A stretch of DNA of 10,581 bases from a virus: UHGV virus genome UHGV-0266139; one strand, 5' to 3'. The notes under the pieces are model-generated. The model was not told the origin of the DNA and made no database searches. It was given only the letters and a program-made list of their open reading frames with translations. Shown in pieces: positions 1,087 to 10,581 of the stretch. Numbering within the stretch: position 1 is the stretch's first letter; each line of letters starts with the position of its first letter. Both the position numbers and the translations under genes were made by a program.

Positions 1087-2049
1087 TTAAGCTGCTTTGC
1101 GAACGTCGAACACATTTTCGAACGCATCAAAAACTTTAACTGTCATTAAATCGATGAATTGAACGGAAGAACCATTTTTCTTAATCAGGTATTTGTTCCA
1201 TTCTGCAACGTCTGCAACAGTACGCTTTTCGTTAAGCAGAATCCAAAGAGCTTGTTTGTCTTTAGATTCAACCGCTTGAGTAAAGAAGTCTTTAGATTCA
1301 ACTTCCTGATCTGCTTCAACTGCCACAGGAGCAACTTCTTTAGCTTTCAGTTCTTCAATCTCAGCTTTCTGTGCTTCGATGATCTGGTCTTTTTCTTTCA
1401 GTGCAGCTTTCAGTTCTGCGATCTGTGCTTCCAGTGCAGAGAAACGATCTTCAACAGCAACCGGAGAAACAGCATTCACCTGTGCTTCCAGTTCCAGGAA
1501 TGCTTCGCAAGATTCAATGCGTTCTTTCTCTTCACCTTCATAAGCAACCAGTTCTACAACTTCTTTTTCGGTAGCGTGGCTGTTAAAGAATACAGCAAAG
1601 TAAGGATTGCCGGATTTAGTGAAGTTCAGTTTAGCTTTTCCGGTAACTTCTTTACGACGACCAAAGGTAATGTTGCAATCAGCGGTATCCTGAAAATCCA
1701 TGTTAGGAGCGGAAACGATAGCAGTATCACCAGCAATAACCAGGTGGAACAGTTCAGAAGAGTTCTTAACGGTGAAAGTAACGATGTGGTCTACTGCAAC
1801 GTCTTTAGCAGGTTTAACGCGGTCGATTGCTTTACGAACGCCGTTAGACAGTTTACCGTCAACACCAAAGCCAGCCGCGATCAGTGCTTCACGATGTGCT
1901 TTAAAGCCAGCGAAAGCGGATTTCTGCTGCGCAAAGGAAACATGAGCAACAACTTTCGGCTGAATCTTCTTGTTTGCTTCGGTGCCAAATTTGATAACTG
2001 ATTTAGCGTTGGTTACTTCGTTAGTGAAAAAGTTAGCGGAAAATAACAT
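1087..2049 (-). CDS. Hypothetical protein, 320 aa: N-terminal domain, central A/E/K-rich coiled-coil region with an internal short repeat, C-terminal domain
   Basis: ATG at 2049 with AGGAG 8 nt upstream; long ORF whose antisense frame is F/C-rich junk. Internal DNA repeat TCTTTAGATTCAAC at about 1257-1270 and 1289-1302 (encoding VESKD twice). No family recognised. Confidence 0.7.
   Translation of the reverse strand: MLFSANFFTNEVTNAKSVIKFGTEANKKIQPKVVAHVSFAQQKSAFAGFKAHREALIAAGFGVDGKLSNGVRKAIDRVKPAKDVAVDHIVTFTVKNSSELFHLVIAGDTAIVSAPNMDFQDTADCNITFGRRKEVTGKAKLNFTKSGNPYFAVFFNSHATEKEVVELVAYEGEEKERIESCEAFLELEAQVNAVSPVAVEDRFSALEAQIAELKAALKEKDQIIEAQKAEIEELKAKEVAPVAVEADQEVESKDFFTQAVESKDKQALWILLNEKRTVADVAEWNKYLIKKNGSSVQFIDLMTVKVFDAFENVFDVRKAA
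1145..1164. repeat. 20-bp perfect direct repeat ATTAAATCGATGAATTGAAC, copy 2 (inside the 3-prime end of the 320-aa gene, encoding VQFIDLM on the minus strand)
   Basis: Identical to 200-219; hand comparison. Confidence 0.6.
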
Positions 2050-2093
2050 TATAAATACTCCTGTGGAAAGTTAGTTTTAATTGTTCATTTCAA

Positions 2094-2131
2094 GCCTCCT
2101 TTGCTGCAACAAGGGAGGCTTTTTCTTTTTT
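2094..2131 (+). terminator. Plus-strand intrinsic terminator candidate: stem GCCTCC (2094-2099) / GGAGGC (2114-2119), TTTTTCTTTTTT tail (2120-2131)
   Basis: GC stem followed directly by a 12-nt T-rich tract on the plus strand. No plus-strand gene lies upstream of it (the flanking genes are minus-strand), so its target transcript is unknown. Confidence 0.45.
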
Positions 2132-2163
2132 AAAGCCATCATATAATTCTCAGTGAAAGTGGA

Positions 2164-2343
2164 TTAACAAACTTGAACGTTAATCTTTACCTGAATTTCG
2201 TATTTCTTCATTAGCTTGTAGAATCCGCTTCTATCAATTCCTTCCTTCTTAAAGAAGTTTTCCCCGCCTCGCTCAGTGTCGCTGTAAAAGCGTTTAGCAA
2301 TATCAACAATCATTTCACGAGTGAACTTAACAGGTCTAGCCAT
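2164..2343 (-). CDS. Small HTH DNA-binding protein, 59 aa (MARPVKFTREMIVDIAKRFYSDTERGGENFFKKEGIDRSGFYKLMKKYEIQVKINVQVC); first gene of the leftward operon
   Basis: Track ORF starts at a GTG (2358); the ATG at 2343 has GAGGAA 7 nt upstream. RP..F...DIA...Y....GI..FYK.MKK pattern resembles Hin/resolvase-type or Mor/C-type HTH domains (from memory). Paralogous to 5629..5856. Confidence 0.55.
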   Translation of the reverse strand: MARPVKFTREMIVDIAKRFYSDTERGGENFFKKEGIDRSGFYKLMKKYEIQVKINVQVC

Positions 2344-2443
2344 CAGTCGATTCCTCACATGTGGATTAATAATTTCTTAAAAAAGAGCATTTCGCTCTGA
2401 ACACTTGTATTTATAAAATGATTTTCAGAAAACCCTGTAAAAC

Positions 2444-2463
2444 CACTGTATATCCGATCAGTG
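2444..2463. promoter_or_regulatory. Operator-like inverted repeat CACTG-N10-CAGTG (CACTGTATATCCGATCAGTG)
   Basis: Palindromic arms seen directly; near-identical second copy at 2529-2548; lies in the control region upstream of the leftward operon. Confidence 0.35.
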
Positions 2464-2528
2464 GGAGCACGAATTGCTAAAGAGAAGATTAATTATTAAT
2501 CAATTCGTACAATATTCAACCGAAAAAG

Positions 2529-2548
2529 CACTGTATATCTAACCAGTG
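2529..2548. promoter_or_regulatory. Operator-like inverted repeat CACTG-N10-CAGTG (CACTGTATATCTAACCAGTG), second copy
   Basis: 17 of 20 positions identical to 2444-2463, same dyad arms, 85 bp away. Confidence 0.35.
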
Positions 2549-2700
2549 CTGTATGAATTAGCAGTGAATCAGGAGATTTTCAGAAGTGAACAATCATTTC
2601 ACACATGTATTTATAACGTGGAAATTCTTGCTTATCATCTATATAGGGACTGTTTAGAAAATTTCAACCCCCACCAGTGAGAAAAAGTATAAAATAATCC

Positions 2701-2729
2701 TTGACAGTTGTCAATACACTTGACCTAAG
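2701..2729. promoter_or_regulatory. TTGACA-N13-TTGACCTAAG motif (contains palindrome TTGACAGTTGTCAA), copy 1
   Basis: Same arrangement TTGACA-N13-TTGACCTAGA recurs at 4318-4346; -35-like hexamers but no good -10 at 17 bp, so promoter versus operator is undecided. Confidence 0.3.
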
Positions 2730-2912
2730 CGAGAAATGGCTATCAAATTTTTTGTTTGAAAATGGTAGATCAGGATTATCAACCTTTATAACCTATTATG
2801 GCACGGAGACCTTTTGACAATTCTTTTTAAATCATTAACTTACGCCACTTTTTGGTGATTTTTTGATTAAATAATATACAATAATTTTCTATCAAAATAT
2901 TTGATGGGAATT

Positions 2913-3105
2913 GCCCCTGAAATTCTGAATTTTTGCCCCCGAATAAAATCCCCAAGATTCCACTATCCAATTTTTGCCCCTGAAACCTACTATTTTTGCC
3001 CCTGAAATTCTGGGAAACAGTGATTTTGCCCCTCATTTTTGCCCCTGAAATGACAATAATTGCCCCTGAAAATCTAATTTTTGCCCCTGAAATTTGCCCC
3101 CGAAA
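2913..3105. repeat. Array of about 9 same-orientation direct repeats, consensus TTTTTGCCCC(T/C)GAAA, mostly 21-22 bp apart (iteron-like)
   Basis: GCCCC cores start at about 2913, 2935, 2976, 2998, 3028, 3041, 3062, 3083, 3096 (hand-counted); a further copy at 5446-5455 sits inside a terminator stem. Confidence 0.7.
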
Positions 3106-3246
3106 GGGATTGGTGAGAAAAACCATTTATAAAACATTAACTTAGCGAGGGCAAAAGCGGGGAATCGGGCGTGCATAGATATTATATAACACATTCGCTA
3201 CGCTCATGTGTAAAACCAAAAACAACAAATAACCAAAAAGATATTA

Positions 3247-3265
3247 GGAGGGCGTAGCCCGACTG
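3247..3265. repeat. About 20-bp direct repeat GGAGGGCGTAGCCCGACTG, copy 1
   Basis: Matches 3678-3697 (GGAGGGCTTTAGCCCGACTG) with one indel; the two copies bracket the CTAG-rich module. Confidence 0.5.
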
Positions 3266-3285
3266 CGCGAAGCGCCAACCAATTG

Positions 3286-3530
3286 CTTCTAGTAACAACT
3301 AATTTAAACTAGATGATACTAGATGGTCTTAGAAGGAATTAACTAGTTTGCTCGCTCGCTTCGCTCACTCTCAAACGTCTGCGACGCCACTGCGTGGCAT
3401 CGAGAATCACTTCTGAAAGGATTTTCTCGAAAGGGATTTAAACTAGTTACTAACTGATTCTAGAAAGATAGTAATAATCACTTTGAAGATAATAGTAGTT
3501 AACTGGTTACTAGATGATTCTAGATCACTT
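3286..3530. repeat. CTAG-rich repeat module: units at 3308-3326, 3441-3467 and 3501-3527 (AACT(A/G)GTTACTA..TGATTCTAGA) flanking a GC-rich core at about 3348-3410
   Basis: Eight CTAG tetramers within about 235 bp against a handful across the rest of the window (by eye, not exhaustively counted); units 3441-3467 and 3501-3527 match at 21 of 27 positions; the core contains GCTC direct repeats and a GCCAC/GTGGC dyad. Confidence 0.6.
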
Positions 3531-3553
3531 TAATGATCATGAAAGGTATTGGT

Positions 3554-3582
3554 ATCCCTTCGGGATTGCAACCTTCGGTTGC
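3554..3582 (+). other. Two adjacent short hairpins: ATCCC/GGGAT (3554-3566) and GCAACC/GGTTGC (3568-3582), both with TTC(G) loops
   Basis: Inverted repeats seen directly; no clean T run follows, so RNA structure or processing site rather than a canonical terminator. Confidence 0.3.
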
Positions 3583-3677
3583 TAAATTGCTTCCTGATTA
3601 TTATTTCTCCAAAAGAAAGATTCTTATATTCTAAAGATACTTCTTCGTTTTGATGATGATTTAATCAAATCTATGAA

Positions 3678-3697
3678 GGAGGGCTTTAGCCCGACTG
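3678..3697. repeat. About 20-bp direct repeat GGAGGGCTTTAGCCCGACTG, copy 2
   Basis: See 3247-3265. Confidence 0.5.
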
Positions 3698-3786
3698 AAT
3701 ACAATCACCTTCTAAAAGAGATAAATTTTTCTCGTTATAAATAATAGTGAACTTACTTGATTCACTTTCTTTTAGAGGATACCACT

Positions 3787-4245
3787 ATGATCAATACTAA
3801 AACTCCTTTCGTACTTCTGGGTCTGGACTCTGAAAACTATGGTAACTTCCATATGCTAGAAGTTTTCGCTAATCGTGGTTATAACATCATTCGTCATTCC
3901 GAAGACTCCAACTACTCAACTGCTTTCTACGCTTTAAAACGAAATGGTCGTCCTACTGTGATCATCGACTGTTTTACTGATGAGGGTCGTCTTCAATACA
4001 ACGATATTCCAGCAATTATTGTTCGTGATGATCTGCCGTTTCAAGTCCGTGAGTATGACGTTGATTTAGGCTCTTACTACTCTTTAGCGGAACTTGACCA
4101 GATTATGGCTGATTACGGTAAACAACCCGCTCAGGAAGCCCCAGAACAAGATGAAGAAGATGAGGAAGACGAAGACTACGCTCCAATCTGTTTCTCTTCT
4201 CAGAATGGCTTCTACGGTTACGATGAAGGCTTAGATATGCTGTAA
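3787..4245 (+). CDS. Highly acidic protein, 152 aa (about 31 D/E against about 10 K/R), with poly-acidic stretch EQDEEDEEDED near the C-terminus; function unknown, candidate DNA mimic or other host-interaction protein
   Basis: Track ORF starts at TTG 3757; the ATG at 3787 has AGAGGA 7 nt upstream. Codon choice looks like a highly expressed enterobacterial gene (CTG, CGT, GGT, TTC, AAC, TAC), judged by eye. First gene downstream of the repeat-rich region. Confidence 0.7.
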   Translation: MINTKTPFVLLGLDSENYGNFHMLEVFANRGYNIIRHSEDSNYSTAFYALKRNGRPTVIIDCFTDEGRLQYNDIPAIIVRDDLPFQVREYDVDLGSYYSLAELDQIMADYGKQPAQEAPEQDEEDEEDEDYAPICFSSQNGFYGYDEGLDML

Positions 4246-4280
4246 GTTAGGTCAACCCTTTGGTGTCTTGTCAAGGGGTA

Positions 4281-4309
4281 TTGGCAAAAATTTATGACTT
4301 TTTTATGAT
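4281..4309 (+). promoter_or_regulatory. Near-consensus sigma70-type promoter: TTGGCA (4281-4286), 17-bp spacer, TATGAT (4304-4309)
   Basis: 5 of 6 matches in each hexamer with optimal spacing; sits between the acidic gene and the 48-aa ORF. Assumes an enterobacterial-type host. Confidence 0.45.
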
Positions 4310-4317
4310 TATCGCAC

Positions 4318-4346
4318 TTGACAAATTTTAACCCATTTGACCTAGA
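4318..4346. promoter_or_regulatory. TTGACA-N13-TTGACCTAGA motif, copy 2
   Basis: Same architecture as 2701-2729; lies just downstream of the promoter call and upstream of the 48-aa ORF. Confidence 0.3.
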
Positions 4347-4367
4347 TTTGTAAAGAGGATGTTAATT

Positions 4368-4514
4368 ATGAACACTACTAAGAAAGTTGATGGACGTAAA
4401 AACCCGAACCGCAAACCGTGGACCCCAAACCTGAATTTCTCAATGGTTGACTTCCATGAACGCCAGCGTCGCATTCAAGAAGAAATTGATCGCGCGATTG
4501 CTGAATCTAAATGA
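4368..4514 (+). CDS. Small basic protein, 48 aa (MNTTKKVDGRKNPNRKPWTPNLNFSMVDFHERQRRIQEEIDRAIAESK)
   Basis: ATG at 4368 with AGAGGA about 10 nt upstream, downstream of the promoter call; basic N-terminus, helical-looking C-terminus. Below the size of the supplied ORF track. Confidence 0.45.
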   Translation: MNTTKKVDGRKNPNRKPWTPNLNFSMVDFHERQRRIQEEIDRAIAESK

Positions 4515-4541
4515 GATAAAAATTTCTTTATAAATAAAATT

Positions 4542-4563
4542 GTTCCGGTTGAGATGCCGGAAC
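4542..4563 (+). other. Hairpin GTTCCGG / CCGGAAC with 8-nt loop immediately upstream of the Rha-like gene ribosome-binding region
   Basis: Perfect 7-bp inverted repeat; followed by TAGGAGGA, not a T run, so not a terminator; possible leader structure. Confidence 0.3.
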
Positions 4564-4603
4564 TAGGAGGATCATCACTAAACCGTTTAAGGGGGATTTT
4601 ACT

Positions 4604-5437
4604 ATGAATACTGTTACTACTATGAATACTGCTGTTAAAACTGCTTCTGTGTCTCTGGTTGTTGATAACACCAAACCGCTGACCATGTCTTCTCGTCAGA
4701 TTGCTGAATTTACCGGAAAAGAACACCACAAAGTTAAAGTTGATATAACTAAGATGTTGAATGCTCTAGGTTATGAAGATCACGCGAAGTTTCGCGTCAT
4801 CTATTTTGACCAATACGGACGCGAACAAAACGAATATCAACTAGACGAAGAAATGACTCTGACTCTTGTCACTGGTTACGATGTTAAGCGTCGAATGGTT
4901 GTTATTCAGGAATGGAAACGACTGAAAGAAGAAAATGAAAAACTGCGTTCTCAGCAAGTCAACCCATACGCAAACATGACTAAGCTCGATTGGATTCGTG
5001 AGGCAATGGAATTGGAAGCCGCAAACGAACAACTGATTCAAGAAAAAGAACAATTAGTTGATCTTCATATCCGTAAAGCTATTGATGCACACAGTCTTAG
5101 CCGCTTATTAGGCGAAAAACGAGGCTCTACGAAGGTACAAATGATTCTGAAAGGTTTATGTGCTGCTGGTGTTCTTGAGCGTCGTCTGGATGCTTCTGGT
5201 AAGCCTAAAGGCTATGATCTGCTTCCTCCTGGCTATATGTTCGCTCGTATGTCGGCACACGGTCAGATCGAGTTCACTGCTGATGCTATCCCGCATCTCG
5301 TAAAACTCGGATTGCTTGAAGAAGAAAAGGCCGCAACTTTGAAATTGCCACAGCCGAACAACTCACGAGCAATTGTCAATAACACTGCTTTGCTGATTCG
5401 TCAGAATGTTGGATCGCTAGAACACTTCGGACTGTAA
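4604..5437 (+). CDS. Rha-family phage regulatory protein (N-terminal Rha-like domain), 277 aa, with coiled-coil middle and C-terminal domain of unknown function
   Basis: ATG at 4604 with GGGGG 8 nt upstream. N-terminal SSRQIAEFTGKEHHKV...TLTLVTGYDVKRRMVVIQEW matches my recollection of the Rha domain pattern (VAE.FGK.H..V..DI, L.VMGFTG), not a database hit. A 13-bp tandem duplication ACTATGAATACTG (4601-4613, 4619-4631) gives MNTVTTMNTAV. Confidence 0.75.
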   Translation: MNTVTTMNTAVKTASVSLVVDNTKPLTMSSRQIAEFTGKEHHKVKVDITKMLNALGYEDHAKFRVIYFDQYGREQNEYQLDEEMTLTLVTGYDVKRRMVVIQEWKRLKEENEKLRSQQVNPYANMTKLDWIREAMELEAANEQLIQEKEQLVDLHIRKAIDAHSLSRLLGEKRGSTKVQMILKGLCAAGVLERRLDASGKPKGYDLLPPGYMFARMSAHGQIEFTADAIPHLVKLGLLEEEKAATLKLPQPNNSRAIVNNTALLIRQNVGSLEHFGL

Positions 5438-5445
5438 TAATTTTT

Positions 5446-5470
5446 GCCCCTGAATTTCAGGGGCTTTTTT
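5446..5470 (+). terminator. Strong intrinsic terminator: GCCCCTG (5446-5452) / CAGGGGC (5458-5464), T6 run (5465-5470); built on a copy of the GCCCCTGAA repeat
   Basis: Perfect GC-rich stem followed directly by TTTTTT, 9 nt after the Rha-like stop codon. Confidence 0.75.
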
Positions 5471-5473
5471 GTA

Positions 5474-5509
5474 TCTGTAGATGCGCTGAACTTTAAGCGC
5501 ATCTACAGA
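5474..5509. promoter_or_regulatory. Perfect 13-bp inverted repeat TCTGTAGATGCGC-N10-GCGCATCTACAGA, followed by palindrome GATGCATC (5514-5521)
   Basis: Seen directly; lies in the intergenic gap between the Rha terminator and the minus-strand cassette; candidate protein-binding site or second hairpin. Confidence 0.4.
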
Positions 5510-5587
5510 TTTGGATGCATCTATAGATCAGTCAAGATTTGGACTCAGCTTCGAGATGAGCGCAGTTTTGCGCCGATTGTTTTACAT

Positions 5588-5613
5588 ACAAAAAAGCCAC
5601 TCCGAAGAGTGGC
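5588..5613 (-). terminator. Minus-strand intrinsic terminator: GCCACTC (5596-5602) / GAGTGGC (5607-5613) with a run of T on the minus strand (plus-strand A run 5588-5595)
   Basis: On the minus strand the stem has a UUCG loop and is followed by UUUUUUGU; 16 nt past the stop codon of gene 5629..5856. Confidence 0.65.
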
Positions 5614-5628
5614 AAAGAGAATCAAAAC

Positions 5629-5856
5629 TCAAAAACCTGTTGCTTCTACGATCTGACCATCACCGATCTGAACATAGAATTTAATGTCTAACTTCTTCAT
5701 ATTCTTATAGAATTGGGCGATTGAGATCCCATGTTCACTAAGAATCTGTTCTTTCGCTTCCTTACCACGATCCGCTGTATAATAAGCGTAGGCAATATCA
5801 GCCATCTGTTCAGCGTTAAAACGGGCAGGGCGACCGCGAGTAGCTTTAGTAGTCAT
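5629..5856 (-). CDS. Small HTH DNA-binding protein, 75 aa (MTTKATRGRPARFNAEQMADIAYAYY...GISIAQFYKNMKKLDIK...), paralog of 2164..2343
   Basis: Track ORF starts at GTG 5889; ATGs at 5862 and 5856, the latter 9 nt from GGAG. RGRPARF then helix-turn-helix pattern resembles the Hin/resolvase-type DNA-binding domain (GRPR arm plus HTH), from memory. The start could be 5862. Confidence 0.55.
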   Translation of the reverse strand: MTTKATRGRPARFNAEQMADIAYAYYTADRGKEAKEQILSEHGISIAQFYKNMKKLDIKFYVQIGDGQIVEATGF

Positions 5857-5891
5857 AGTCATTTTCTCCAAATTAAAGTGAATGTTCACCT

Positions 5892-6494
5892 TTATTTAGA
5901 GGACTTACATTTTATCGGAAAAAGTTCTCCATCGTCAACCGACATAAAGAACTCTGCCTTAATCCCGTACTTCTTCAACCGTGAATAGTATGTACCCCGA
6001 CTAATATCAACCTTGCGAAGCACTTCGAAGAACTCTTTAGGATTCCTGTAATAATGGCTATAACGCACGTTAGCGAGTTCAACGAATAGTTCCCTTGTAT
6101 CACCATAGCCTTTCTTGAAAGCCTCGTTACGATAGCGTGTAATAGCGTGATTCGATCTCTTCTGTTTAAGCACTTCCCTGATCGGCTTCCACTGCAACCG
6201 ATAGATTGGACCGCCATCCACTCGATAATAACGCTTGATATCAAAATCAAACCATTCACGGACTCGCTGAAACTCTGTCTGTGATGTTCGGTGCTTCTTA
6301 AAGAAGTTATGAATATCGGTATACCCATGATCGCGATACAACTCGATTAAAATCTCTTTCGCTTCCTCACGACTAAAGCCAGATGTTGTGTAGTCGGTTT
6401 TTAAATGCTTATGCTTAACGGGTAAACGATATTCATGATCGGTACAAGACAAGGCTAATTCTAATTCATCTCTTTCTTGCTGATTAATTAGCAT
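5892..6494 (-). CDS. Basic 200-aa protein rich in R/K/Y with a C-terminal HTH module related to the two small HTH proteins; candidate DNA-binding regulator
   Basis: ATG at 6494 with AGGAGG about 4 nt upstream; C-terminal ...[26 protein letters not shown] aligns without gaps to the 75-aa protein (IS, Y, KK, IK). No nuclease motif (GIY-YIG, HNH, LAGLIDADG) seen. Confidence 0.65.
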
Positions 6495-6581
6495 ACACCC
6501 TCCTTAAATCTTAATACCCGTATTTATCAAAATATCAACAATTTAATAAATACCTTCATATTTCGTAATGAGGGTAATTAC

Positions 6582-8489
6582 ATGAAACTAATTTCTAATA
6601 AGGCCAAATTAAAAAAGATTCTCAGAAATGCAGCCAAATATATTACGCCACCGCCTAAACTCCTTCCATCGGAATGGTGCGAAGCGAATATGGTGCTGGT
6701 AGATGGTCCTCAAGCTGGGGATAAAGTTAAACTGCTGTCATTCCAGAAAGGCATGATTGATGCTCCTTTCCTTGAGAACAAGAAAAAGTATGTTCTGATG
6801 ACCAGTGCGCAGATCGGAAAGACTACCATCCTGAACGGCATCCTGTTTAACCAGATGGCTAACGATCCATGCAATATGATTATCGGACAATCAACCGCTA
6901 AAGAAATGTCTCAATATCTCGCTGGTAAGATCCGACCGTCTATCGAAGCATGTGATGCATTAAAAGACGTGGTTACAGACAAGAATGATCGCAATTCGGT
7001 TAATAACAATAACCAGCTACAGCTCAAAACGAATCACTTCCTGTACATGGTATCGCTTACCAGCCCATCAACCCTACGTGGTAAGACCGCAAAGGTTGGA
7101 TTACTTGACGAAATTGATGCTGCCACAGCCTCAGAAGAAGGTGATCCGGTGGCACTGGCTGCTAACCGTTTAACTACCTTTGGAGATGAAGGTCGATTAG
7201 TCGTATCCAGTACCCCGACCAGTAAGCTGGGAAGCATTAACCAGCAATGGTTATCAAGCGATATGCGTATGTTTTTTGTTCCGTGTCCTCATTGCGGGGA
7301 ACACCAGGTGATCGAGTGGGAAAACGTTCAATTTGAATGGCGTAACATCGATGGTAAGAACTTACCCGATCCTGATACCGCTCGTTATATTTGCCCCCAC
7401 TGTAAGAACGCATGGACAGAAGGGGAACGAATCAGGGCAGTAGCGCAAGGCGAGTGGAGAGCAACCCGTGAAAGTGAAGTAGCAGGATTCTGGATCAGTC
7501 GTCTGTATTCACCTTTCAGCACGATTCGCGCTTGTGTGGTTGATTTTAGTCATGCGTGGCAATCCTTTGATTTACAATCCTTTTTTAACACCGTGTTAGG
7601 CAAGGTATACGATGATCAGGACACGGCAGTAGAAGCAAATGAACTGGAACAACTCAAAACAGATGTTTCTATCGAGAATATCCCTGATGACGTGATTTTC
7701 TTGTGCTCAGGAATTGACCAGCAATTGGACCGCGCAGAATCTACCATCTTAGGTGTAGCGAAAGATAAGGTTTACATTCTGGATCACCGTAGCTTTTACG
7801 ATCATAACTGTGAACGATATGAATCCCCTGTATGGGATCGTCTGATTAACTTCAAGAAAACCAAATTCTATAACGTTAATGGTGAACGTGTGCCAATGCT
7901 CGCCAGCTTCCTTGATACATCGAACGGTCGATTCACTCAAGCCGGATACCGTATTTGCGGCAAGTGGAAGAACCTACACGCTATCAAAGGTAGTTCATCT
8001 GGTAATGCTCCAGTGATTCCGGTTAAACCTACCCGCACAGGTGGTCATGAATTGCTTATGCTGGGTGTTAACGTTGGTAAATCCGCTGTTCGTGAAATGC
8101 TGGTTAGAAACCTGAAAGATAATCCTCATATTGGCTTAGAAATATCAGAAACCGTTCCTGATGATTATCTCGATCAGCTTTTGAGTGAATCCATCAAGCG
8201 TACTACTACTGGCGTGCGTTGGGTGAAAAATCCAGGTAGTACCCGAAACGAGGCTCTCGACTGTCTGGTTTATAGCTATGCTGCTTCTCGCTACGTCCTT
8301 TCAAAAATGTCATGGGATAAACTCATTGCAATGAAAGACAGCTTAAACCGTGTTGTCGAAGAATCCGTAGAAGCTCCTAAATCGCAATCTGACGAGCAAA
8401 TAGAAGAAACTAAGCCAATCACACGACCACAACGTCAAAACATCGCCAGACGTCCAAATAGAGGCCGTAGCTGGGTAACATCGTTCTAA
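6582..8489 (+). CDS. terL: Terminase large subunit, lambda gpA type, 635 aa
   Basis: ATG with GAGGG 7 nt upstream. Walker A-like SAQIGKTT, acidic VGLLDEID, zinc-ribbon CPHCGEHQ...CPHC, and blocks [32 protein letters not shown] match lambda gpA (ACPHCGEEQ, YSPFTTW, AGIDSQLDR, RNEALDCFVYALAA) from memory; size matches (lambda 641 aa). Confidence 0.9.
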
Positions 8490-9066: not shown

Positions 9067-10509
9067 ATGTTTAATCTTTTTCGACGCAAAAAGGCGGTAG
9101 AAACTCCAGTTAAAACTAATCACCGCCAGCAACAACCAAAAATTTTCATCGACAAACAAGTAGAAAAATTCCAGAAAGATTTGTCTAAGCGTTCTTTGGG
9201 CTTGGTCGGTGATCGCATTGATGGATCGCTTCAACAAGATACTATCACAGGAACCTTCAATAAGGCTCTCAAATCGAACGGTAAGCGCCTTTATGATCAG
9301 GGTCGTACTCTGGCCTTAAACACTTCCGTAGGCAGTCGCTACACGCAATACATCACCGATATGGTGGTTGGTACTGGCCTAGATCCGAAGCCGTCAGTTG
9401 TTAAATCAAATGGAAAACTTGATAGCGCACTGAATAAGCAGATCGAGAATGCTTTCTGGAAGTGGGCGCAGAATGCTAAACGCTTCTCTCGTAACGGTCG
9501 CTTTAACTTCCGTGAACTGCTGGTAATGGCTGAACGTGAGCGCGTTATGGGTGGTGAGTGCTTCATAGTTTTAACCAAAGAAAACAATGAGTTAAATGTT
9601 TCTATCCTGTCTGCTGATAAGTGCGACTGGACGCTCAACCGTGAAGTAAGCAAAGAACGTGCTATCTATCAGGGGATAGAGTATGACGTAGAAACAATGC
9701 GCCCTGTTGCATACTGGTTTCGTAAAATCAACCTACTGACTCAGACTTACACAGGTGATAACTATCGCGTAGATGCTTCGCAAGTATGCCATTATTATCA
9801 ACCACTTGCGGCTGAATCTCTGCGTGGTGTGACTGACTTCCTGCCAGTGATCAAGGATATTGCGCATCAAGACGCATTCCGCGAAACCGCGATCATCCAG
9901 AAACGTATTGCAGCTAGCTCTATGGGCTTTATCGAACGTCCGAAAGATTCTGGTGACGATTTTGATACTGGTGAAGAGGATGAACAATATCAAGCGCCGG
10001 AAGTAGTACAGGATTTTGCACCGGGTACTATTCAGGAATTGCCGGAAGGGGCAACGATCAAGAGCATCCAGGCGACGCAAAGCGGTGATGATTTCAATTC
10101 CTTCAATGATGCGATGTTTACTAGCGTATCAATGGGCTTAGGCGTGTTTAAACAGGGCTTGACTGGTGATACTTCCCAGATCAACTACTCAGCCGCGCGT
10201 TTCGGTGAACTACTTCAACGTAACCGTGTTAAATCGCTACAAAACAAATTGATTGAAACAGTGGTATTGCCAATTTTTGAAGCATATCTACGCCATTATT
10301 CCGCGCGTGGTATTGTTCCGATTCGTATTACTGCAATCCCGCATATTATCGATAACACTACTATTATTCGTCCGCGTTTTGAGTCCGTCGATGTTATTAA
10401 AGATGTGAACGCTGATATTGCTTTAATTGATAACGGACTTAGAATCTATCCCAAAAGGATTTTATTCCAGACAATGATGCTGCAAGCAAAATGCAGCATC
10501 GCCTCGTAG
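9067..10509 (+). CDS. Portal protein, lambda gpB type, 480 aa
   Basis: ATG with AAGGGG 6 nt upstream. Blocks FWKWAQNAKRF...NFRELLVMAERERVMGGECFIV and GLGV...YSAAR parallel lambda gpB (AAWKEFAED...TFTMMIREGV...GELFV; GLGVSYEQLSRNYAQMSYSTAR) from memory; correct synteny after terminase and gpW. Confidence 0.85.
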   Translation: MFNLFRRKKAVETPVKTNHRQQQPKIFIDKQVEKFQKDLSKRSLGLVGDRIDGSLQQDTITGTFNKALKSNGKRLYDQGRTLALNTSVGSRYTQYITDMVVGTGLDPKPSVVKSNGKLDSALNKQIENAFWKWAQNAKRFSRNGRFNFRELLVMAERERVMGGECFIVLTKENNELNVSILSADKCDWTLNREVSKERAIYQGIEYDVETMRPVAYWFRKINLLTQTYTGDNYRVDASQVCHYYQPLAAESLRGVTDFLPVIKDIAHQDAFRETAIIQKRIAASSMGFIERPKDSGDDFDTGEEDEQYQAPEVVQDFAPGTIQELPEGATIKSIQATQSGDDFNSFNDAMFTSVSMGLGVFKQGLTGDTSQINYSAARFGELLQRNRVKSLQNKLIETVVLPIFEAYLRHYSARGIVPIRITAIPHIIDNTTIIRPRFESVDVIKDVNADIALIDNGLRIYPKRILFQTMMLQAKCSIAS

Positions 10510-10581
10510 TTTTCGACTTTCTTCTCCCATCGCGTCAGTATGCGGCGAAAGCGATTCATCCAGCTATGTGTTCTTTCCACA
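10491..10581 (+). CDS. 5-prime end of the next gene (MQHRLVVFDFLLPSRQYAAK...), overlapping the portal stop by 19 nt and running off the window; by synteny possibly a head protease or scaffold gene
   Basis: ATG at 10491 in a different frame from the portal, open to the window end; the 19-nt overlap mirrors the lambda B/C overlap. No clear Shine-Dalgarno and no sequence match to lambda gpC, so weak. Confidence 0.3.
   Translation, partial: MQHRLVVFDFLLPSRQYAAKAIHPAMCSFH

Follow-up and report, generated by a model that had tools for sequence, protein, structure and literature searches.

Helix-turn-helix modules of genes A, B and C

The DNA stretch analyzed here, 10,581 nucleotides of the UHGV virus genome UHGV-0266139 (hereafter the window), comprises the early/regulatory region and the start of the late operon of a ~35-kb prophage. 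It contains three genes, designated A, B and C, whose products are built of one type of small helix-turn-helix (HTH) module and which are all encoded on the minus strand. Gene A (2164..2343) is an open reading frame (ORF) for a 59-amino-acid (aa) protein with a single module, composed of an ARP arm, three helices and one β-strand. The ORF of gene B (5629..5856) encodes a 75-aa single-module protein with an RGRP arm, three helices and a complete β-hairpin, and that of gene C (5892..6494) a 200-aa protein, in which a 34-residue leader is followed by two tandem modules. Module 1 of C (residues 35-103; 6186..6392) was distinguished by a second BLASTP match, by hhalign and in the structural model, and module 2 (residues 128-196; 5907..6113) by BLASTP, hhalign and the model.

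A is the first gene of a leftward operon, in which it is followed by the ORF of a 320-aa protein (1087..2049, minus strand). C heads another leftward operon, with B as the second gene, and is divergent from the gene encoding the large terminase TerL. In the initial annotation, two of the modules were placed at the heads of divergent transcription units next to repeat-rich DNA. A and C do head leftward operons, but B is second in its operon, and repeat-rich DNA near a module gene is found only upstream of A, with an array of iterons beginning ~570 bp from this gene.

The same annotation described A, B and the C-terminus of C as three paralogous modules. Sequence comparison confirmed the paralogy, but the number of modules is four, since module 1 of C had been overlooked. 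In BLASTP searches A shares 35% identity with B over 57 residues (E 7e-10) and 35% identity with residues 133-186 of C (E 6e-7); the latter alignment, previously reported as ungapped, contains one 3-residue gap. A second match links A with residues 40-87 of C (E 0.003), and the similarity between B and C was not significant by BLASTP. Family alignments were built from database homologues (45 matches for C, 23 for B and 25 for A), all of which are unnamed proteins from E. coli, Shigella, Salmonella and Proteus. Comparison of the family profiles with hhalign gave 97% for A with B, 97% and 96% for A with modules 1 and 2 of C, 96% and 95% for B with the same modules, and 89% for the two C modules with each other. 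Every pair of modules therefore falls within 89-97%, and the three genes contain four modules.

The GRP-containing N-terminal arm noted earlier is present as RGRP in B and as ARP in A, and each of these motifs is invariant in its family, but neither C module has an arm. In the A family alignment the sequence MARPVKFTRE is invariant and the third helix nearly so. The DNA-reading parts of both A and B are nearly invariant amid mosaic neighbouring genes, in keeping with a target that does not vary. C is conserved within E. coli although its neighbours are mosaic; the best-conserved parts of the C family are the hairpins and the hydrophobic core, and the recognition helix of module 1 is variable. 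The prophage family has members in E. coli, Salmonella and Proteus, across which the synteny of A, B and C is conserved: the genes occupy fixed positions, their reading frames are intact, and identity ranges from 43 to 100%. For further comparison a set of 35 related prophage loci was used (within the numbering L003-L039). There is no B gene after C in L006 and L009.

Structure prediction agreed with an HTH-type domain. In the AlphaFold2 models of C (predicted local distance difference test score, pLDDT, 75; predicted template modelling score, pTM, 0.68) and B (pLDDT 79.8), each module consists of three helices followed by a β-hairpin. In B, the helices comprise residues 15-27, 32-41 and 46-53 and the strands residues 61-63 and 69-71; in module 1 of C, the corresponding elements are helices 42-56, 61-67 and 72-82 and strands 86-92 and 97-99, and in module 2, helices 134-147, 152-161 and 166-175 and a strand at 180-186. 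Protein A stops after the first strand of the hairpin. The general features of HTH domains were recovered, namely a bundle of three helices, the second and third of which form the HTH, and DNA-binding HTH domains as structural neighbours; in a Foldseek search of the C model against the Protein Data Bank (PDB) no match had an E value below 2. That the two modules of C would pack as a pseudo-dimer is not established by the pTM of 0.68.

The relationship of the modules to known families became visible with profiles. Searches run directly with A, B and C against Pfam, PHROGs, NCBIfam and PDB sequences did not rise above noise, and no Pfam model reached its threshold in a scan of the window proteins, including the gathering threshold of HTH_Tnp_1 (PF01527). 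A scan of genome contigs with the C alignment found no relative, tblastn of C against sequenced phages no match and a search of plasmids no match to A, and a metagenome scan for A recovered only the same prophage family. An exhaustive HMMER search of 1.84 billion representative proteins with a joint module profile returned 33 proteins at E <= 0.001, comprising the module family itself and multi-repeat proteins assigned by Pfam to HTH_Tnp_1, HTH_23, HTH_28 and HTH_7. With hhalign, the module profile A4 matched the units of Pfam-confirmed HTH_Tnp_1 proteins at 97.5% over 47 columns covering all three helices, a value subject to selection bias, as the targets were drawn from the match list of the module profile itself. 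Of the separate families compared with these units, A scored 96%, B 95%, module 2 of C 86% and module 1 of C 33%. A B-like protein of locus L012 gave E 0.019 with HTH_Tnp_1 (15.6 bits, the cut-off being 24.1) and E 0.031 with HTH_7 (PF02796), whereas A, B and C had no HTH_7 match even at E up to 1.

We conclude that the modules constitute a new family of homeodomain-like HTH sequences, nearest to the OrfA proteins of IS3 insertion sequences (IS) and related to the Hin/resolvase domain, and that A, B and C are very probably sequence-specific DNA-binding proteins. The earlier assignment to a Hin/resolvase type thus holds for the broad class, which includes those domains, but the closest family is HTH_Tnp_1 and not HTH_7. 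Furthermore, the modules are not fused to the serine-recombinase catalytic domain that accompanies HTH_7 in Hin, γδ and Tn3 resolvases, and those of C are armless; the Resolvase and Recombinase domains of the prophage sit in a separate 559-aa protein at its far end. For the other suggestion, Mor/C-type activators, we found nothing specific: A, B and C have no match to Mor (PF08765), and their HTH begins near the N-terminus and is followed by a β-hairpin, unlike the Mor layout with its N-terminal dimerisation region and C-terminal HTH.

With the HTH of IS3 OrfA (HTH_Tnp_1 and its relatives HTH_23 and HTH_28) the modules share the three helices and the pattern (R/K)xxF/YtxE, followed by G-I-S-x-x-T-F-Y-x-x-x-K-K-Y. 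Since their best profile match is to OrfA-type units, A, B and C could be regarded as decayed remnants of insertion sequences with no role in the phage. We consider this extremely improbable, because the genes retain intact frames at fixed positions in prophages of E. coli, Salmonella and Proteus, at the identities given above, and no transposase catalytic gene (DDE transposase, OrfB) or IS ends lie alongside them. Their neighbours are phage genes, and the only IS fragment, at 10447-10581, is unrelated. The modules also differ from OrfA in their C-terminal β-hairpin, an extension specific to this family, and in occurring alone or in tandem inside one small protein.

Iterons, leader of gene A and a shared cassette

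The iteron array (2910..3105, plus strand) is composed of 8-9 direct TTTGCCCCTGAA units with 21-22-bp spacing (9 matches versus 0.5 expected) and is adjoined by an AT-rich stretch. Its units are of the GCCCCTGAAA type. In the 35 loci the repeat unit varies by lineage, and five or more types could be distinguished, including TTCAGGGGC, TAGTGTAGG, TCACGGACA, AACACATCG and GCTAGGGAT. The N-terminal type of the ~310-380-aa protein encoded after A predicts the iteron unit without exception: the MLFS type is associated with TTCAGGGGC in 16 of 16 loci and the MKNS type with TAGTGTAGG in 12 of 12. Each iteron type, in turn, is combined with two to four alleles of A, with several of B and with C proteins of 88-100% identity, and the A protein of L013 is 100% identical to that of the window, yet this locus has TAGTGTAGG iterons. 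The iteron type thus tracks the downstream protein and assorts freely with the alleles of A, B and C, which indicates that the iterons are likely read by the 320-aa protein rather than by the modules.

In the 320-aa protein, the N-terminal domain and the C-terminus are variable and a coiled coil lies between them. Family searches gave no match for this protein, and tblastn detected no homologue in plasmids or sequenced phages. An initiator-like role is suggested by the iteron spacing, by the AT-rich stretch beside the array and by analogy with iteron-containing origins, and the ~320-aa coiled-coil proteins look like an unannotated family of iteron-binding, initiator-like proteins.

It had been proposed that the modules read the repeats of this region, i.e. 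that the GCCCCTGAAA iterons, the CACTG-N10-CAGTG sites or the inverted repeat at 5474-5509 are their operators. HTH proteins with a minor-groove arm often bind repeat-type operator sites, and A shares its non-coding block with the iterons and the CTG-N10-CAG boxes. For the iterons, this proposal is largely refuted by the allele assortment described above. The CTG-N10-CAG boxes, three of which lie in the leader between the promoter P1 and A (2444-2463, 2529-2548 and 2547-2566), match the LexA consensus TACTGTATATATATACAGTA at 13-16 of 20 positions in the window and its relatives, and in them CTGTAT...CAG is kept but the spacer is free to change. Both main A alleles are accompanied by such boxes, which are absent from L003-L007 and missing in many relatives that retain A, B and C. 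Host LexA would be their simplest reader. The inverted repeat (about 13-15 bp, perfect) is situated past the 3′ end of B and belongs, together with three ATCTNNAGAT palindromes, to an insertion of ~113 bp (~5470-5585) between the convergent terminators of B and of the gene encoding a Rha-family protein. No relative has this insertion, which may be a small mobile element, and the repeat was also dropped as a cos site or operator because the relatives are without it. Taken together, it is very unlikely that the modules read any of these repeats.

The LexA-like boxes lie downstream of P1 and not over the promoter, and some lineages carry a different block without boxes. In the same leader, a 20-mer, CTCTTTAGCAATTCGTGCTCCC (AGCA-N5-TGCT; 2463-2484, minus strand), is conserved among otherwise different leader types, sometimes in two copies, and is a candidate protein-binding site. 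Two sites resembling the DnaA box TTATCCACA flank gene A, namely TAATCCACA (2360-2368, minus strand; 8/9 positions) and TAATCCACT (2159-2167, minus strand; 7/9), and the upstream copy is kept in most relatives. The terminator after the Rha gene (5446-5464) consists of the iteron core and its inverted copy (GCCCCTGAA TTTCAGGGGC); the related prophage L001 and also L007 share this arrangement, whereas L008 lacks it despite having the same iterons.

The strongest sigma-70-type promoter of the window, P1 (TTGACA-17-TATACT; 2686..2714, minus strand), is directed at A from ~370 nt upstream and is conserved in relatives; in the scan of the window, a strong sigma-70 promoter was found only at the A operon. 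Its -35 box is covered by the palindrome TTGACAGTTGTCAA (2701-2714). The palindrome is often present in relatives too; its TTGAC/GTCAA arms are then kept and the central 4-5 bases vary, a pattern as expected for an operator. Just upstream of the ribosome-binding site of A, a hairpin followed by a T-run (2376..2398, minus strand) is a predicted leader terminator or attenuator, kept in relatives with compensatory stem changes. A second hairpin lies between A and the 320-aa gene and makes a good intrinsic terminator on the opposite strand. There, a TTATAAATAC motif overlapping the start codon of the 320-aa gene is combined with the intrinsic terminator (2049..2131, plus strand), which suggests a ~65-nt antisense RNA against the leader of this gene. 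Type-1 relatives keep this antisense arrangement, and the cassette of a T4-like phage does so in part.

This cassette was identified in the T4-like contig L010 (4894-6625) and also in L011, between homologues of T4 genes 3 and 2. It encodes an A-like 64-aa protein starting with MARPVKFTRE, which is preceded by a hairpin-rich stretch, approximately eight TAGCGATTAC repeats, a sigma-70 promoter and, at the position of the leader hairpin of A, another hairpin. The A-like gene is followed by a hairpin and by genes for a 204-aa protein and an 80-aa coiled-coil protein. The 204-aa protein shows homology (38% identity, E 2e-14) to the proteins encoded after A in two prophage lineages; tblastn searches of sequenced phages with the A-like and 204-aa proteins gave no match. 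A, iterons and the downstream protein occur together in all 35 prophage loci and in the T4-like contig, and this common layout indicates that the iterons, A and the iteron-specific protein move as a cassette.

Short GC-rich hairpins are densely packed at 3140-3720, within DNA that is otherwise AT-rich, and all relatives have an equivalent region. On the plus strand many of the loops are C(UUCG)G, C(UACG)G or C(UGCG)G, and the hairpins are interspersed with TTCTnGAAAGGnAT-like repeats. Both strands fold ~3 standard deviations better than shuffled sequences, and the similar z-scores of -3.0 and -3.5 do not allow the strand to be assigned by energy. Rfam gave no match in the window or in the 1.4-kb non-coding block.

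The prophage, the C-TerL spacer and the T4-late-like motif

Window DNA matches the chromosomes of 70 of 5426 complete E. coli genomes (~1.3%) with 80-99% identity. In E. coli GN4741 the ~35 kb prophage splits ycdX, carries the gene of the 559-aa protein, a large serine recombinase, at the far end and has a complete set of head, tail and lysis genes. Family matches in the window were obtained for a lambda-type TerL (6582-8489, plus strand), a lambda-family portal (9067-10509, plus strand), a head-tail joining protein on the same strand, and the Rha-family protein (4604-5437); the remaining ORFs had no family match. Megablast against sequenced phages revealed no close relative of the window, the best TerL match among them being phage DCP80 (42.7%), and a literature search on a ycdX prophage brought up no relevant work. 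The end of an IS5-family element (10447-10581; 98% identical to copies on Pantoea plasmids) cuts the portal gene ~20 codons before its normal end, and this copy of the prophage is probably defective as a result.

As C adjoins the TerL gene in most loci, and no small terminase gene precedes TerL on the same strand, C alone or with B might be a small terminase or a protein recognizing the packaging site. Small terminases have N-terminal HTH domains, which in some of them are HTH_Tnp_1-like, as repeat proteins related to the modules match Sf6_terminase and HTH_Tnp_1_2. This role is highly improbable, as a separate 183-aa gene product matches the small-terminase family phrog_57 (E 9e-17), A, B and C have no match to a small terminase family, and the AlphaFold2 model of C appears to lack the typical oligomerisation core. 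C is, moreover, divergent from TerL, and is not adjacent to it in L012 and L020. In these two loci C, a B-like gene, the iterons, A and the downstream gene form an uninterrupted series on a single strand, away from TerL, which argues that the four modules belong with the early block rather than with packaging. C was dropped as a small terminase after the phrog_57 match had been found. The phrog_57 gene (L001 19338-19889) is located just left of window position 1, at the left end of the prophage and ~6 kb from TerL, with the whole early region between them. The C homologue of L012 (7614-8354), like that of L020, consists of two ORFs of 121 and 117 aa with the break inside the hairpin of module 1, representing either a frameshift or a naturally split version.

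Each operon, in the window and in relatives, is preceded by a motif of the form TTATAAATA or ATAAATAC. The window contains six TTATAAATA (0.25 expected) and five ATAAATAC (0.6 expected), located at 7-15, 2049-2057, 2408-2416, 2608-2616, 3735-3743, 4528-4536, 6520-6527 and 6546-6553. In the window, A, C, TerL, the 149-aa gene and the Rha gene have copies 25-105 nt upstream, and in seven distinct relatives the motif was found upstream of A, C and TerL in 21 of 21 cases. The 87-bp C-TerL spacer (6495..6581) contains just two back-to-back promoter-like motifs, ATAAATAC at 6520-6527 (minus strand) and at 6546-6553 (plus strand); in relatives the C and TerL copies are ~0-40 bp apart. The sites lack both a -35 box and a canonical TAnnnT -10 hexamer, and they were missed by the sigma-70 scan because the motif cannot be aligned to TAnnnT. 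T4 late promoters, recognized by the phage-encoded sigma factor gp55 (PMC1524935), have TTATAAATA as their consensus. A gp55-like protein was not detected.

The motif is used either by host sigma-70 unaided or with a phage factor. The HTH modules are the only candidate factors visible, with no direct link to the motif, and they, most plausibly C, might give RNA polymerase specificity for TTATAAATA promoters as a sigma-like protein or an obligatory activator. Consistent with such a role, ATAAATA is found at the distances given above from A, C, TerL, the Rha gene and the gene of the 149-aa (P149) type in most or all of the seven relatives. The (T/A)ATAAATA matches of L001 are all intergenic, except for one that falls at the extreme 3′ end of a small gene, and aim at the adjacent downstream gene. 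The identity with the T4 late consensus and the conservation of C within E. coli point in the same direction, and an early product of the A operon, the only one with a strong sigma-70 promoter, could switch on the rest. The C promoter itself, however, carries the motif, which creates a bootstrap problem, and host sigma-70 may use AT-rich elements unaided. On balance, this kind of specificity is unlikely, and the stronger version, in which all operons except the early one run from (T/A)ATAAATA promoters that host RNA polymerase uses by means of the private HTH modules, with A made first from P1 and C as a fused two-headed copy, is distinctly so. In that version, A and the iteron-binding protein would constitute a movable unit of origin and control that temperate prophages and T4-like phages exchange.

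Proposed roles and comparison with known systems

In family searches no CI/Cro-type regulator could be recognized among the prophage proteins, and the Rha-family protein was otherwise the only regulator found. We infer that the phage uses A, B and C as transcription regulators of its own. In the reading we prefer, although it is tentative and somewhat short of an even case, A controls the operon of P1, A and the initiator, and C with the optional B governs the back-to-back C and late promoters. A, as the first gene of a portable cassette (hairpin-rich region, iterons, P1, A, hairpin and the iteron-specific coiled-coil protein, in this order), would regulate the operon of an iteron-binding, initiator-like protein; its target could be the TTGAC-N4-GTCAA palindrome that is conserved at the -35 box of P1, or some other site that does not vary. 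C would act as a built-in two-headed module which, with the optional B, decides between transcription of the C/B operon and of the late operon. The iterons would be left to the 320-aa protein and the CTG-N10-CAG boxes to host LexA.

Several observations weigh against this scheme. The binding sites of the modules are candidates predicted from sequence, and the L007-type and T4-like versions retain A but not the P1 palindrome. The separation of C and B from TerL in L012 and L020 weakens the idea of a late-promoter switch. Because the recognition helix of module 1 is variable, C may act partly via protein contacts. The initiator role of the 320-aa protein, finally, is drawn only from iteron covariation and architecture.

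The modules themselves are a new family within an ordinary kind, the small phage HTH regulators. None of the early genes of these prophages has so far had an assigned function; a single HTH module family opens cheap tests of lysogeny control without a CI/Cro-type repressor, and excluding the named repeats as module targets narrows such tests. More unusual than the paralogy are the iteron cassette common to a T4-like phage, the LexA boxes in a long leader and the T4-late-like motif.

In phage T4, oriE has an iteron cluster beside repEA/repEB, the function of which is unresolved (PMC3016281). The A-like cassette resembles it as an evenly spaced cluster of direct repeats beside small early genes in a T4-type genome, but is placed between the gene 3 and gene 2 homologues.

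Another parallel is provided by the Cop-type repressors (CopR of pIP501, CopG of pMV158 and CopB of R1), which act ahead of plasmid initiator genes. The likeness is functional and not based on sequence. The prophage element is integrated, and no plasmid carries the cassette. In both cases, a small DNA-binding protein would be encoded first in the operon of an iteron-associated, initiator-like protein, and the predicted antisense RNA with its own terminator between A and the 320-aa gene would correspond to the countertranscripts of the Cop-type systems.

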